Shown here one piece after another: positions 1,146-54,141 of a DNA stretch of 64,000 bases. The stretch is from a virus (lineage: Duplodnaviria > Caudoviricetes), in the IMG/VR virus record IMGVR_UViG_3300020371_000002, one strand, 5' to 3'. Below the pieces are notes generated by a model. The model had not been told where the DNA came from. It did not search any database and was given only the letters and a program-made list of their open reading frames with translations. The translations under genes and the position numbers were made by a program. Numbering within the stretch: position 1 is the stretch's first letter; the number at the start of each line of letters is the position of its first letter.

Positions 1146-1200
1146 AGGATAGTCAATAAAAAACCCTCTGTCAACAGAGGGTGTTACACTTTTAGAACTG
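1146..1200 (-). promoter_or_regulatory. sigma70-like early promoter TTGACA-17-TATCCT inside a terminator hairpin
   Basis: -35 at 1169-1174 sits at the apex of ACCCTCTG/CAGAGGGT, followed by a T-run; -10 at 1146-1151. Confidence 0.7.
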
Positions 1201-1353
1201 GTTCAGCATCTTGAGAGTCTCGGGATCGAACTCCTCACGAATCCCTGCGCCAGGCAACCAATCCTCGGGACCAGTCTCCATCATCTCAGCATACAGTTCA
1301 TCATAATCGCGATACTCCGAATCGAAGGCATCGTCACGATCGAACTCATTCAT
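1192..1353 (-). CDS. 53-aa highly acidic early peptide (not in track)
   Basis: MNEFDRDDAFDSEYRDYDELYAEMMETGPEDWLPGAGIREEFDPETLKMLNQF; has its own promoter upstream. Confidence 0.7.
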   Translation of the reverse strand: MNEFDRDDAFDSEYRDYDELYAEMMETGPEDWLPGAGIREEFDPETLKMLNQF

Positions 1354-1379
1354 GTGTCTTATGTGTGTTGAACAATGTC

Positions 1380-1437
1380 AATATAGGATCAACCCATCAC
1401 TTAGGCAATGGGGTTGTGACAGTTATCCGAGTGGTGC
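1380..1437 (-). promoter_or_regulatory. sigma70-like early promoter TTGCCT-17-TATATT with upstream dyad
   Basis: -10 at 1380-1385, -35 at 1403-1408; imperfect inverted repeat around the -35. Confidence 0.65.
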
Positions 1438-1785
1438 AACTGCTGGATCCAGAGGCACGCCACCGTGTCCCATATCAAAACGAGACTCAGCACGGAGAGA
1501 TTCCAGTTCTTGACGGAGATCTCTAATTTCTTTCTCTACTTCTGCTGTAGTTTTTACCACGTTAGTCAGTGTTTGTTGGTATCCGATTGCCTGTACCAAT
1601 AATTTCTCAAGGGCACACAATCTACCATCAAGATTGCCCAATGTTTGTGACATGATCTTGACTTGTTTATTCAAACGATCCAGTCTTTGTGGACCATCTT
1701 CACCCTTGCCTGCAAATGTCTGTCCCTGTTCAGCAACAGTAGGCATCTTTGGTGGTTCTGGTTTTGTTGGCACGTTGTCAGTCAT
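1423..1785 (-). CDS. hypothetical coiled-coil protein
   Basis: ORF track; heptad pattern; late promoter ATAAATA at 1807-1813. Confidence 0.7.
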   Translation of the reverse strand: MTDNVPTKPEPPKMPTVAEQGQTFAGKGEDGPQRLDRLNKQVKIMSQTLGNLDGRLCALEKLLVQAIGYQQTLTNVVKTTAEVEKEIRDLRQELESLRAESRFDMGHGGVPLDPAVAPLG

Positions 1786-18530: not shown

Positions 18531-18603
18531 TGGAGAATAGGGGACTCGAACCCCTAACCCCCTGCTTGCAAAGCAGGTGCTCTACCAATTGAGCTAATTC
18601 CCC
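18531..18603 (-). tRNA. trnA: tRNA-Ala(UGC)
   Basis: GGGGAATTAGCTCAATTGGTAGAGCACCTGCTTTGCAAGCAGGGGGTTAGGGGTTCGAGTCCCCTATTCTCCA. Confidence 0.97.
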
Positions 18604-18805: not shown

Positions 18806-19072
18806 AGGGGGCATTACACCCCCAAGGACTACTTGGGTAAGAAGGCTAGTCTAACCCCCATCTCCCATTCAGGCAGTCGCGAGTTCACGAGTGCGGGAGA
18901 ATGCTACGATGTTGTTCGCAGCGACATCAGATGGTTTAGCATCTATTGGTTGCTTATCCAAGCAGGTTTCAGTCATGCCCCTTGTACCCCGTCGAAGCCA
19001 GTGCGACCCCATGAGTGGAGTCGAGGGGAATCGAACCCCTGTCCGAAATGTAGGTTGCATCACCTATTCCAC
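18806..19072 (-). ncRNA. ssrA: circularly permuted (two-piece) tmRNA
   Basis: Acceptor piece ...TTTCGGACAGGGGTTCGATTCCCCTCGACTCCA (ends 19016), 5-nt spacer, coding piece GGGGTCGCACTGGCTTCGACGGGG (starts 19010); 7-bp acceptor stem with G3:U70; tag frame 18919-18869 ANNIVAFSRTRELATA. Outer ends approximate. Confidence 0.92.
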
Positions 19073-19082
19073 AAAAGTGGAA

Positions 19083-19156
19083 AGCCACATGTCGGACTTG
19101 AACCGACGACCTACGGTTTACAAAACCGTTGCTCTATCCAGCTGAGCTAAAGTGGC
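19083..19156 (-). tRNA. trnT: tRNA-Thr(UGU)
   Basis: GCCACTTTAGCTCAGCTGGATAGAGCAACGGTTTTGTAAACCGTAGGTCGTCGGTTCAAGTCCGACATGTGGCT. Confidence 0.96.
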
Positions 19157-19173: not shown

Positions 19174-19256
19174 TAGGAGTGGGGGGACTTGAACCCCCAC
19201 GCCCAGAGGGCAACAGATTTTAAGTCTGGTGTGTCTACCGATTCCACCACACTCCC
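19174..19256 (-). tRNA. trnL: tRNA-Leu(UAA)
   Basis: GGGAGTGTGGTGGAATCGGTAGACACACCAGACTTAAAATCTG..., long variable arm, GGTTCAAGTCC. Confidence 0.96.
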
Positions 19257-48316: not shown

Positions 48317-48339
48317 AAACTCATCCTTTTTTAAGGATT

Positions 48340-48498
48340 TCAACAAGTTATTTTCCAGTTTTGTATACCAAACGACTTTAAATTAACCCATTTGGCATAA
48401 TGTACACCACGATACGTCAAAAATGCGAACGTTTTATCTGGATCGTGTTTGTCTGGATCAAAGGCTGGAAGATCATAATCAAATCTGATCTTCAGCAT
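48340..48498 (-). CDS. 52-aa DUF4278-like peptide (not in track)
   Basis: MLKIRFDYDLPAFDPDKHDPDKTFAFLTYRGVHYAKWVNL...; LTYRG motif. Confidence 0.65.
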   Translation of the reverse strand: MLKIRFDYDLPAFDPDKHDPDKTFAFLTYRGVHYAKWVNLKSFGIQNWKITC

Positions 48499-48507
48499 CT
48501 TCTCCTC

Positions 48508-48606
48508 CTAACTTAATTTGTGTAAGAGGAGGATCTCACCGTAAAGTAATCCAATGAATGCTGCACAACCAAGGGACGTTAGTCCGACTACTTGTAGTGC
48601 TTCCAT
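48508..48606 (-). CDS. 32-aa membrane peptide (not in track)
   Basis: MEALQVVGLTSLGCAAFIGLLYGEILLLHKLS. Confidence 0.55.
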   Translation of the reverse strand: MEALQVVGLTSLGCAAFIGLLYGEILLLHKLS

Positions 48607-48611
48607 GGCGA

Positions 48612-48779
48612 TCACTTAGTATAGGTGCGACCACGATAGCAGTAGGTCCCGTGAGACTCTTTGCTTTCTACACAACGCTGATCATACTCAACACCACGAT
48701 AGGCAGTGTGAGAAATCTGGGCATCATGCAGAGCAGCCTGCTTCTCGATTTGCTTTTTGATTAGAGTAAGTGTGTTCAT
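48612..48779 (-). CDS. 55-aa DUF4278 family peptide (not in track)
   Basis: MNTLTLIKKQIEKQAALHDAQISHTAYRGVEYD...TYCYRGRTYTK; two YRG motifs; AGGAG RBS. Confidence 0.8.
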   Translation of the reverse strand: MNTLTLIKKQIEKQAALHDAQISHTAYRGVEYDQRCVESKESHGTYCYRGRTYTK

Positions 48780-48809
48780 GATTGACTCCTGAAATACTAG
48801 GGATTTACG

Positions 48810-49000
48810 CCCCGTTCCTTCAGTCGTTTGCGTCCCAGTAGTAATTACATTCGGGTACAGATTCCTTTACGGTCTCTACTAGTTCTACCACAATTTCTTT
48901 AGGTAGTTCTGATCTGTTTGCATTGATTCTGATGATTAATGCATCAGCATCAGCGCACATCATACCAGAGTACAAAAGTAATTCAAACATGGGATGAACG
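48810..49000 (-). ncRNA. glutamine-II (Downstream-peptide) riboswitch-like unit 2, with ORF in the P2 loop
   Basis: 5' CGTTCATCCC (49000-48991) ... 3' GGGACGCAAACGACTGAAGGAACGGGG (48836-48810). Confidence 0.7.
48820..48990 (-). CDS. 56-aa peptide nested in riboswitch unit 2 (not in track)
   Basis: MFELLLYSGMMCADADALIIRINANRSELPKEIVVELVETVKESVPECNYYWDAND. Confidence 0.65.
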   Translation of the reverse strand: MFELLLYSGMMCADADALIIRINANRSELPKEIVVELVETVKESVPECNYYWDAND

Positions 49001-49002
49001 CT

Positions 49003-49236
49003 CCGTTCCGCGACTTACTTGCGTCCTATGTAAATGTCCCCTCGCATTGACCTTCTACTTTTGACTTAAGATATCCTATGAGATTCCACTTAGATCGTTG
49101 ATCTAAGTTGGGATCCATTTGGATCTCTACTCGTCGCTGTAAGAACCTTTCACAACTCATGTGCCACCCATAGGGTGACCCGTCATTATGATGGGCTAAG
49201 GTCATCGCCAGTAAGAAACTTAGCATGGGATGAACG
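49003..49236 (-). ncRNA. glutamine-II riboswitch-like unit 1, with ORF in the P2 loop
   Basis: 5' CGTTCATCCC (49236-49227) ... 3' GGACGCAAGTAAGTCGCGGAACGG (49026-49003). Confidence 0.6.
49026..49226 (-). CDS. 66-aa putatively secreted/membrane peptide nested in riboswitch unit 1
   Basis: signal-like N-terminus; two Cys. Confidence 0.65.
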   Translation of the reverse strand: MLSFLLAMTLAHHNDGSPYGWHMSCERFLQRRVEIQMDPNLDQRSKWNLIGYLKSKVEGQCEGTFT

Positions 49237-49244
49237 ACAGTCCT

Positions 49245-49302
49245 ACTATAGGACTCATGCCTTATTTAGTCAAGTAAATCATTAAATCGTAACATTAGAT
49301 AC
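49245..49302 (-). promoter_or_regulatory. sigma70 promoter TTGACT-17-TATAGT + embedded late promoter + NtcA box
   Basis: -10 at 49250-49245, -35 at 49273-49268, CTAAATA at 49269-49263, GTATCTAATGTTAC at 49302-49289. Confidence 0.7.
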
Positions 49303-49328: not shown

Positions 49329-49742
49329 TTAGGATTTCTTTAACTTTTTATAGACAAAATTATTGCGGGTCAAGATCATTCCTGCCCGCTTCGTCTCGAT
49401 ATAGTTCGAGAAGTTTGATGTATTCTGTTTTTGCCACTCTATAATGCGTGCTTCCTTATAAGGATCATAGAATCCCTGTCGTGTGTACCACGAGCGCCAG
49501 TCCTCATGGGACTTGTCTCTATTGCACTCAGCACACGCACAAATGAGATTTTTTGTCTCATCAGTCCCCCCGTGAAAACGGGGAACAACGTGGTCTAGAG
49601 TAAGATTTTCTCTAGATCCACAATACGCACACTTATAGTTGAATGATTCTTTAATCGAGTCTTTCCATATACGTCTAGCTTCTCCTGGGGAACAAGTATG
49701 AAGATTATAAAGATAATCTTCGGGTGAGCTAAAGACTTCCAT
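49329..49742 (-). CDS. HNH endonuclease
   Basis: CAYCG...TLDHVVPRFHGG...NLICACAECNRDK; late promoter at 49765-49771. Confidence 0.92.
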   Translation of the reverse strand: MEVFSSPEDYLYNLHTCSPGEARRIWKDSIKESFNYKCAYCGSRENLTLDHVVPRFHGGTDETKNLICACAECNRDKSHEDWRSWYTRQGFYDPYKEARIIEWQKQNTSNFSNYIETKRAGMILTRNNFVYKKLKKS

Positions 49743-53984: not shown

Positions 53985-54105
53985 ATAAGAATAAGTAAGA
54001 CCATCAGGGAAATGGTGGAGTTACTATTCCTCTGCGCCCTAGGCAGAGGTATGAGAGACTGTTCTTTAGACACGCTGTTTAGTCTCGGTCAGGCGTGTTT
54101 ACAAC
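53985..54105 (-). ncRNA. PhotoRC-II-like structured psbA leader
   Basis: GACCGAGAC...GTCTC, CCTCTGC/GCAGAGG and ACCAT/ATGGT stems ending CCCTGATGGTCTTACTT, as recalled for cyanophage psbA 5' UTRs. Confidence 0.6.
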
Positions 54106-54141
54106 CAGTTAAAGAACTTTACATTCCGTAACGTGTTGATG

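Follow-up and report, generated by a model that had tools for sequence, protein, structure and literature searches.

The stretch of DNA analysed here is a 64,000-nucleotide (nt) phage sequence (IMG/VR record IMGVR_UViG_3300020371_000002, called the window below) from a T4-like cyanomyovirus, the best matches being Synechococcus phages of the Kyanoviridae. On its minus strand, from position 49,236 down to 48,810, lie two tandem units resembling glutamine riboswitch aptamers, each split by a complete open reading frame (ORF1 and ORF2) and together followed by a small DUF4278-like gene (ORF3). Pairs of aptamer halves occur nowhere else in the 64-kb window, and the arrangement is far beyond chance. 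The order of these elements had been described in a sequence-only reading that was accurate as to the sequence. The interpretation that we prefer, with a probability of about 0.55, is that the region forms a double glutamine aptamer with a nested fold, opening an early phage mRNA and holding one small gene in each P2 loop. The parts of the element are listed below, where o and i mark the outer and inner aptamer of the nested fold and Px is the helix between the two units.

49245..49273, minus: early promoter TTGACT-17-TATAGT, sigma-70-type, 10/12 consensus matches
49236-49227, minus: 5' half 1, CGTTCATCCC as DNA and CGUUCAUCCC as RNA, made up of CGUUC (P1 5' strand, 49236-49232), A and UCCC, which opens the ORF1-closing stem
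49226-49026, minus: ORF1, ATG to TAG, 66 amino acids (aa), in the loop of stem P2o
49230-49224 paired with 49030-49024, minus: stem P2o, with both the AUG and the UAG of ORF1 inside it
49030-49003, minus: 3' half 1, CATAGGACGCAAGTAAGTCGCGGAACGG / CAUAGGACGCAAGUAAGUCGCGGAACGG, made up in order of CAUAGGA (stem 3' strand), CGCAAGUA (ligand strand and putative half of an E-loop), AGUCG, C and GGAACGG
49015-49011, minus: AGUCG, the Px strand of unit 1
49002-49001, minus: linker AG between the units
48996..49008, minus: junction hairpin GAACG-GAG-CGUUC, which the nested fold uses as P1 of its inner, permuted aptamer
49000-48991, minus: 5' half 2, CGTTCATCCC, that is CGUUCA plus UCCC
48990-48820, minus: ORF2, 56 aa, ending in WDAND and a stop codon, in the loop of stem P2i
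48994-48990 paired with 48837-48833, minus: stem P2i
48837-48811, minus: 3' half 2, TGGGACGCAAACGACTGAAGGAACGGG / UGGGACGCAAACGACUGAAGGAACGGG, made up of UGGGA, CGCAAA, CGACU (Px strand, 48826-48822), GAA and GGAACGG
48786..48823, minus: expression platform, comprising hairpin H and a Shine-Dalgarno (SD) sequence
between 3' half 2 and AGGAG, minus: pyrimidine tract
48790-48786, minus: AGGAG, the SD sequence of ORF3
48779-48612, minus: ORF3, 55 aa, YRG-motif DUF4278-like protein, phrog_545, the presumed regulated gene

The loop genes and their closing stems

Judged by their sequences, ORF1 and ORF2 are conserved, real genes and distant, old paralogues. ORF1 belongs to the phrog_6471 family (syn9 gp196) and ORF2 to phrog_504 (syn9 gp197); across IMG/VR both families display two invariant Cys residues, a hydrophobic N-terminus and indels in multiples of three, and their profiles align to one another with an hhalign probability of 93.6% (E 2e-7). 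The claim that whole ORFs lie within the loop-closing stems is upheld by the conservation and codon periodicity of both families, the nucleotide entropy of the ORF2 body in the 153-nt class being 1.05, 0.53 and 1.42 bits at codon positions 1, 2 and 3. A Pfam search matched neither protein to a family, and the AlphaFold models, helical hairpins with a predicted local distance difference test (pLDDT) score of 80-81, have no informative structural neighbour in PDB or AFDB. ORF2 ends inside the RNA core: as had been noticed from the sequence, its last five codons (UGG GAC GCA AAC GAC) and stop are themselves aptamer core sequence. These codons are invariant including their third positions (entropy 0.08, 0.12, 0.00 bits), and in 98 of 99 loci ORF2 keeps a constant frame with respect to the 3' half.

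Loop lengths were scored in loci drawn from 106 IMG/VR loci retrieved by the junction pattern. The first loop is short (12-47 nt) in 71 of 105 scored loci and carries an ORF1 homologue (199-234 nt) in the remaining 34, and the second holds an ORF (140-195 nt) in 99 of 100, being short in one. ORF2 starts 4 nt 3' of CGUUCA in 92 of 99 loci and stops at a fixed site within the 3' half in 92 of 99, despite subfamilies that are just 17-25% identical. A separate set of 80 loci was chosen by similarity to the ORF2 protein alone, with its last five residues removed. All 80 have the 3' half and 78 have the 5' half in the standard position, one of the remaining two being cut at a contig end and the other having a shifted start; the inter-unit linker is 2 nt long in all 78 scorable loci of this set. 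The suggestion that ORF cassettes are inserted into the aptamer loop fits the presence or absence of ORF1 among relatives, but not the age of the paralogues or their fixed frame relative to the aptamer. In addition, a metatranscriptome contig from run X15 joins CGTTCATCCC to GGGACGCAA.. through TTCG, skipping ORF2 (window 48836/48991); this could reflect a natural variant that lacks ORF2, or else a chimera produced by aligning unit 1 of a relative. Unit number and ORF position also vary: locus L058 (6504-6830, plus strand) contains a three-unit chain composed of a short self-contained aptamer, a unit bearing an ORF1-like gene and a short terminal unit that precedes a DUF4278 gene.

The stems closing these loops covary across 140-234 nt of coding sequence (~270 metagenomic units). 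In the ORF2-type stem, positions 1-4 pair in 33/33, 33/33, 33/33 and 32/33 haplotypes, with exchanges from U-A to C-G and from C-G to U-A to A-U, and the values observed at positions 4 and 5 are reached by none of 1000 shuffles. In the ORF1-type stem, position 3 pairs in all 31 haplotypes using three pair types (equalled in 0/1000 shuffles), and the ORF1 stop codon is itself part of the stem, TAG, TGA and TAA going with UCCU, UCUC and UCUU opposite. For every 5' strand the 3' strand of its own unit is a better match than that of the neighbouring unit, and a permuted P2 combining the unit 2 5' strand with the unit 1 3' strand was ruled out by this poorer cross-partner fit. The sequence-only reading had stated that the P2 stems are kept and had named covariation across cyanophage homologues as a check; both ORF-closing stems do covary and pair over long range, the blemish being a C.A mismatch in the first of them. 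Single-sequence minimum free energy (MFE) structures of isolated units were dropped as evidence since codon-shuffled controls fold alike (the terminal helix is in the MFE of 60/60 ORF1-type units, 38/40 controls with codon-shuffled interiors and 9/60 ORF2-type units), and alifold on the ORF-containing alignments is disturbed by indels near the AUG. For unit 2 alifold chose a different pairing, of GCGUUC (49001-48996, minus strand) with the complementary GGACGC (48835-48830, stem 3' strand plus ligand strand), which could be coincidental or could reflect a contact made in the off state.

Natural short-loop orthologues served as loop-deleted test sequences for Infernal. At the equivalent site S-P4 has CGUUCAUCCC-UUCG-GGGACGCAAGUAAGUCGCGGAACGG (beginning GGGACGCAAG) followed by an ORF2-bearing unit, and this short unit scores 26.4 bits against RF01704 and 25.8 bits against RF01739. 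The short units of L058 and L267 reach 35.1-37.7 bits with RF01739 (cut-off 35) and 35.9 bits with RF01704 (cut-off 33). Comparison of loop-deleted sequence with the Rfam models, also proposed earlier, thus has a natural counterpart in loop-less relatives that match the glutamine models.

The inter-unit helix and the register of the fold

AGUCG of unit 1 (49015-49011) is complementary to CGACU of unit 2 (48826-48822), forming helix Px. IMG/VR was scanned for each variant strand independently of its partner, giving 258 distinct tandem regions. In these GUCGC occurs with ACGAC, and a G-C to A-U exchange (GUCAC with AUGAC) is found in 65 regions with 1 A.C and 0 G.U, the combination of GUCGC with AUGAC occurring in none of the 258. 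The second pair likewise changes from G-C to A-U (AAUCG or GAUCG with CGAUU) in 23 regions, with 21 G.U and 0 A.C. Px is therefore supported as well as any stem in the element. By linking the two units, this covarying helix argues against the earlier picture of a simple serial arrangement.

Since the two CGUUC copies are identical, as are the two GAACG copies, the units could pair in two registers. In the fold that we favour, the outer aptamer would be a type-I-like three-way junction in which P1o joins CGUUC (49236-49232) to GAACG (48817-48813), P2o closes ORF1, CGCAAGUA is the junction J2/3, Px takes the place of P3, and the GAA within GAAGGAACG of unit 2 provides J3/1. The inner aptamer would be circularly permuted and sit in the P3 loop, with the junction hairpin GAACG-GAG-CGUUC as P1i, P2i closing ORF2, CGCAAA as the ligand strand and, for its P3, the opposite end of Px. 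We consider this fully nested fold somewhat more likely than not. Read in this register, the element recovers the type-I consensus order of CGUUCA, P2, ACGCAAGUA, P3 5' strand, P3 3' strand and GAAGGAACG. The AAGUA preceding AGUCG in unit 1 and the GAA following CGACU in unit 2 would form the two halves of an E-loop; AAGUA is found in non-terminal units only and GAA or AAA in the terminal unit only, a division of labour that is explained because the nested register lets the two halves meet across Px.

Relatives and folding energies point the same way. In the short-short tandem of L267, RF01739 aligns the outer fold across both units, accommodating a 43-nt insertion in P3; the resulting 40.2 bits pass the cut-off of 35 and exceed the score of every serial unit there. 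The nested fold is obtained for 27/27 distinct short-short tandems and for their alifold consensus. For the 434-nt element of the window, the energy is -131.7 kcal/mol under the nested constraint, -129.2 kcal/mol under the serial constraint and -132.4 kcal/mol unconstrained, so that the nested fold lies 0.7 kcal/mol above the unconstrained MFE and 2.5 kcal/mol below the serial fold; both ORF-closing stems are already in the unconstrained MFE. The junction hairpin (ΔG -3.9 kcal/mol) is present in the full-transcript MFE and in 27/27 short-short relatives. It had been cast as a competitor that breaks both P1 helices; it can indeed form, but in the favoured fold it is the inner P1 itself and not a competing structure. 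L267 further contains (region 1194-1496, minus strand), ~200 nt from its nested double aptamer, a single type-I glutamine aptamer (37.7 bits) with its own AG-CCGA-CU P3 hairpin, which adjoins a manA RNA (175.6 bits).

The alternative that survives best, and which we nevertheless regard as unlikely, is a pair of serial aptamers, 5' half 1 pairing with 3' half 1 around ORF1 and 5' half 2 with 3' half 2 around ORF2. Px would then act as a shared glutamine-II-style P2 that stacks the cores end to end, and the junction hairpin would be an off-state competitor relaying the state of unit 1 to unit 2. Single units do resemble a whole aptamer (those with short loops reach 25-36 bits with RF01704 and RF01739), unit 1 is able to fold prior to transcription of unit 2, and single phage aptamers share the AAGUA..C-GGAACGG layout of unit 1. 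Moreover, in the glutamine-II topology the ligand strand and GGAACGG lie on one strand flanking P2 (PMC6698751), and loci of the L076 type are clearly serial. However, a serial arrangement becomes a double pseudoknot once Px is added, it leaves the halves of the E-loop, which meet across Px solely in the nested register, split between units, and it is disfavoured both by nearest-neighbour energies and by the higher type-I model score of the outer fold in L267. A switch of register during transcription is possible.

Expression platform and proposed control

Downstream of the second unit, CUGAAG (48823-48818) pairs with UUUCAG (48794-48789) to form hairpin H, which overlaps the GAA-GGAA of the aptamer and abuts the SD sequence AGGAG. 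H covaries from CUGAAG/CUUCAG to CUAAAG/CUUUAG with no A.C combination, the change from CUGAAG to CUAAAG preserving the ORF2 stop (UGA to UAA), and in some lineages it reaches into GGAA. GGAG in the junction hairpin is the sole SD-like sequence for ORF2, whose AUG abuts P2i. In the folded state the ORF1 AUG lies within P2o and the 12-nt ORF1 leader is a P1 strand.

Cyanobacterial glutamine riboswitches are translational ON switches for DUF4278/IF17 genes (PMC6212724, PMC6698751). By analogy, glutamine would stabilize the P1 helices, drawing GAA-GGAACG and CU out of H and freeing the AGGAG of ORF3; folding of the aptamer should open this site because H competes with Px, J3/1 and the 3' strand of P1. 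Folding and initiation on the loop ORFs should be mutually exclusive because the start regions of ORF1 and ORF2 are buried when the element is folded. Ribosomes on ORF1 or ORF2 would have to unfold the sensor, and a ribosome terminating at the ORF2 UGA would sit on Px and hairpin H. Burial of the start regions together with unfolding by ribosomes would therefore give the loop genes and ORF3 opposite glutamine responses, ORF3 going up and ORF1 and ORF2 down, with translation of the loop ORFs resetting the sensor. On the strength of this analogy we infer that the element binds glutamine and that the loop ORFs are controlled reciprocally to ORF3. The translation-coupled glutamine cascade envisaged by the sequence-only reading seems plausible. 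In its most complete form, which we put forward tentatively and at less than even odds, the element would be a 425-nt glutamine-operated toggle whose two cores are fused by a shared helix, nested, and each wrapped around a gene, glutamine flipping the output. With glutamine the mRNA would close, silencing both enclosed genes and opening the ribosome site of the DUF4278 gene, whose product is glutamine-synthetase-inhibitor-like; without glutamine, or during translation of the enclosed genes, the sensor would be disassembled and the output reversed. Slippage between registers is conceivable too, with a serial one arising while the RNA is transcribed and the nested one as its counterpart.

The promoter is expected to initiate 1-3 nt 5' of the first CGUUC, in line with the earlier prediction of a start just upstream of it. 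The element begins 8 nt 3' of TATAGT, which would make 5' half 1 the first transcribed sequence, and the same spacing of -10 box, 8 nt and CGTTCA is also seen in IMG/VR loci. The -10 box lies inside a perfect palindrome, AGTCCTATAGTAGGACT (window 49239-49255, minus strand), that covaries between phages, the variants GGTCTATAATAGACC, GGTATATAATACC and GTGTTATAATAACAC being found 5' of CGTTCA elsewhere (L007, L013, L019, L032 and others). The palindrome resembles the promoter-early stem-loops (PeSL) described for T4-type phages. Directly 5' of the promoter is a 137-aa ORF (window 49329-49742, minus strand) that may be a mobile insertion: the matching stretch in Sf-FS3 includes a gene annotated as an HNH endonuclease, and S-IOM18, S-P4 and syn9 have no 137-aa ORF annotated there, with nrdB and a small ORF upstream instead. 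Beyond ORF3 the predicted operon continues as follows.

48508-48615, minus: 35-aa hydrophobic peptide, after ORF3
48340-48498, minus: 52-aa YRG-motif protein, phrog_6192
48316-48299, minus: intrinsic terminator, the operon end

With the 52-aa YRG protein besides ORF3, the operon holds two DUF4278-like peptides, the second at its end. In ORF3 itself the YRG motif is present in 95 of 99 orthologues, but the Pfam DUF4278 match (18.8 bits, E 0.0022) falls under the 25.3-bit cut-off. In three metatranscriptome runs the contigs extend over 48336-49211 but over neither flank, which agrees with the predicted operon without proving it, DNA carry-over being possible.

We judge it unlikely that the loop ORFs are passengers, the aptamers being an ordinary ON switch for ORF3 and ORF1 and ORF2 being unaffected by glutamine and merely lodged in permissive loops. 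In favour of this reading, structured RNAs accept insertions in their peripheral loops, this part of the genome, which has a stem-loop promoter, is hyperplastic for small genes, and the element is otherwise unchanged whether ORF1 is present (34) or absent (71 of the 105 loci). Passengers would nevertheless be hard to reconcile with start and stop positions that are each fixed in 92/99 loci across divergent ORF2 subfamilies, or with the near-universal presence of ORF2, which is absent in 1/100 loci. A ribosome footprint at either AUG moreover covers a P1 strand, hence some coupling is physically unavoidable.

Several observations weigh against the nested double aptamer and the control proposed for it. 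The window has no glutamine riboswitch match in Rfam at the gathering threshold or at E<=10, and its nearest record (G001) has no RF01704 match; family membership rests on relatives because the model cannot span the 170-200-nt ORF loops. P2o in the window contains a C.A mismatch (UCC-C-AUG / CAU-A-GGA), and the ORF1-type stem has just 3 contiguous pairs in 11/31 haplotypes. Because CGUUC and GAACG are invariant, covariation cannot separate the nested from the serial register, loci of the L076 type are serial, with a separate AG-CCGA-CU hairpin in each unit, and in four other short-short relatives Infernal gave single units (28-33 bits) in place of the outer fold. H covers just the first two bases of the SD sequence, and the RNA evidence is confined to metatranscriptome contigs. 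That the aptamers are degenerate, binding no glutamine and being kept as translation or termination signals or as recombination homology for small-gene cassettes, is highly improbable: the missing Rfam match in the window, the occupation of the same loop by different ORF subfamilies and the metatranscriptome contig joints at aptamer halves would suit such a role, but the ligand-contacting CGUUC, CGC and GGAACGG are invariant even at synonymous codon positions, and three helices covary, which is not required of recombination signals.

Distribution and comparison with known systems

The element was matched in 370 phage records, all named Synechococcus, Prochlorococcus or 'Cyanophage', 22 of which span both ORFs. 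Isolates sharing this locus include syn9, S-IOM18 and S-CAM1. A pattern scan of 185,579 prokaryotic species genomes, made with loops of 136-166 nt and no other loop size, gave 60 matches, three of which, from cyanobacterial or marine records, were read: two Laspinema matches lie within a histidine kinase gene and the third lies on a cyanophage contig that had been misbinned. The remaining 57, which come from unrelated taxa of soil and fresh water, were taken as chance and left uninspected, and within these bounds (136-166-nt loops, 57/60 matches uninspected) no cellular instance was found. Other structured RNAs in the window are a two-piece cyanobacterial-type tmRNA (18808-19098, minus strand; RF01851 145.5 bits, RF04321 86.4 bits) with tRNA genes on either side (18531-18603 and 19174-19256) and a PhotoRC-II RNA motif (54016-54111, minus strand, 56.4 bits).

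Riboswitches were found to be rare in phages in a 2022 survey (PMC9004378), and phage glutamine riboswitches have been reported and called rare (PMC9004378, PMC9964418). The literature searched, which did not cover Ames & Breaker 2011, describes no genes inside any aptamer and no nested double aptamer with a shared helix. Its architecture sets the element apart as a novel form of glutamine riboswitch. Riboswitch aptamers are usually viewed as compact non-coding leaders; this one is interrupted by genes, some of whose codons use the same nucleotides, and the covarying long-range helices that hold it together broaden the range of natural riboswitch forms. Covariance-model scans are blind to it, and against the rarity stated in the 2022 survey it is present in 370 cyanophage records and many marine viral contigs. 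It offers a natural test case for the coupling of ligand, folding and translation, and would link host nitrogen status, through glutamine, to early gene expression in viruses of Synechococcus and Prochlorococcus, one output being a relative of the glutamine-synthetase inactivating factor.

Among known aptamers, the units had been assigned to the glutamine-II type, but their sequences are closer to type I (glnA, RF01739), with which they share the AAGUA...GAA motif and a P3-like helix. Further points of likeness are P1 (CGUUC/GAACG with an adjacent conserved G, two copies each of CGUUCA and GGAACGG being present here), a P2 stem after CGUUCA, the J2/3 sequence ACGCAAGUA (consensus ACGGAAGUA), a candidate P3 helix, the J3/1 sequence GAAGGAACG, a position upstream of a DUF4278-like gene, and the 35-40 bits of the short-loop relatives against a cut-off of 35. 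The differences lie in size and topology: the P2 loops are ORFs of 201 and 171 nt in place of ~4 nt, P3 is an inter-unit helix whose 'loop' is a second gene-bearing aptamer and not a hairpin, and the sensor measures ~425 nt as against ~55, with no covariance-model match in the window. With the glutamine-II aptamer (RF01704) the element has in common the core of CGUUCA, hairpin and CGCA...GGAACGG, the occurrence in marine picocyanobacteria and their phages and the small YRG/DUF4278 peptide downstream. Unlike in RF01704, GGAACGG is not enclosed by a local P2 hairpin (that of unit 1 has no 3' partner strand, and the sole local partner for unit 2, UUUCAG, is 20 nt distant and shares bases with the SD sequence), the linkers contain the type-I AAGUA and GAA motifs, and scores of the best relatives range from 25 to 36 bits (cut-off 33).

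More distant parallels concern the architecture. Group I and II introns also carry an ORF in a peripheral loop whose closing stem is kept, with the ORF present or absent among relatives, but here there is no ribozyme or mobile intron, the ORF is not an endonuclease, and ORF and RNA core overlap (start, stop and five codons lie within the aptamer). Leader-peptide attenuators and translationally coupled genes likewise let translation of an upstream ORF and alternative pairings decide expression of the next gene, the difference being that the 'leaders' of the present element are conserved proteins of 53-66 aa and the alternative structure is a metabolite aptamer. Tandem riboswitches (glycine, and the tandem glnA RNAs noted in PMC2864571) similarly have two cores in one leader with inter-aptamer contacts, and probably a sharper response; in the phage element, by contrast, the cores share one helix end to end, may be nested, and each hold a gene. 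Finally, glutamine is able to bring a glutamine-II aptamer together from two separate RNAs (PMC6698751), and the double aptamer, with its shared helix and possible nesting, is reminiscent of the domain-swapped dimer of the glutamine-II crystal, a likeness that may aid RNA design.

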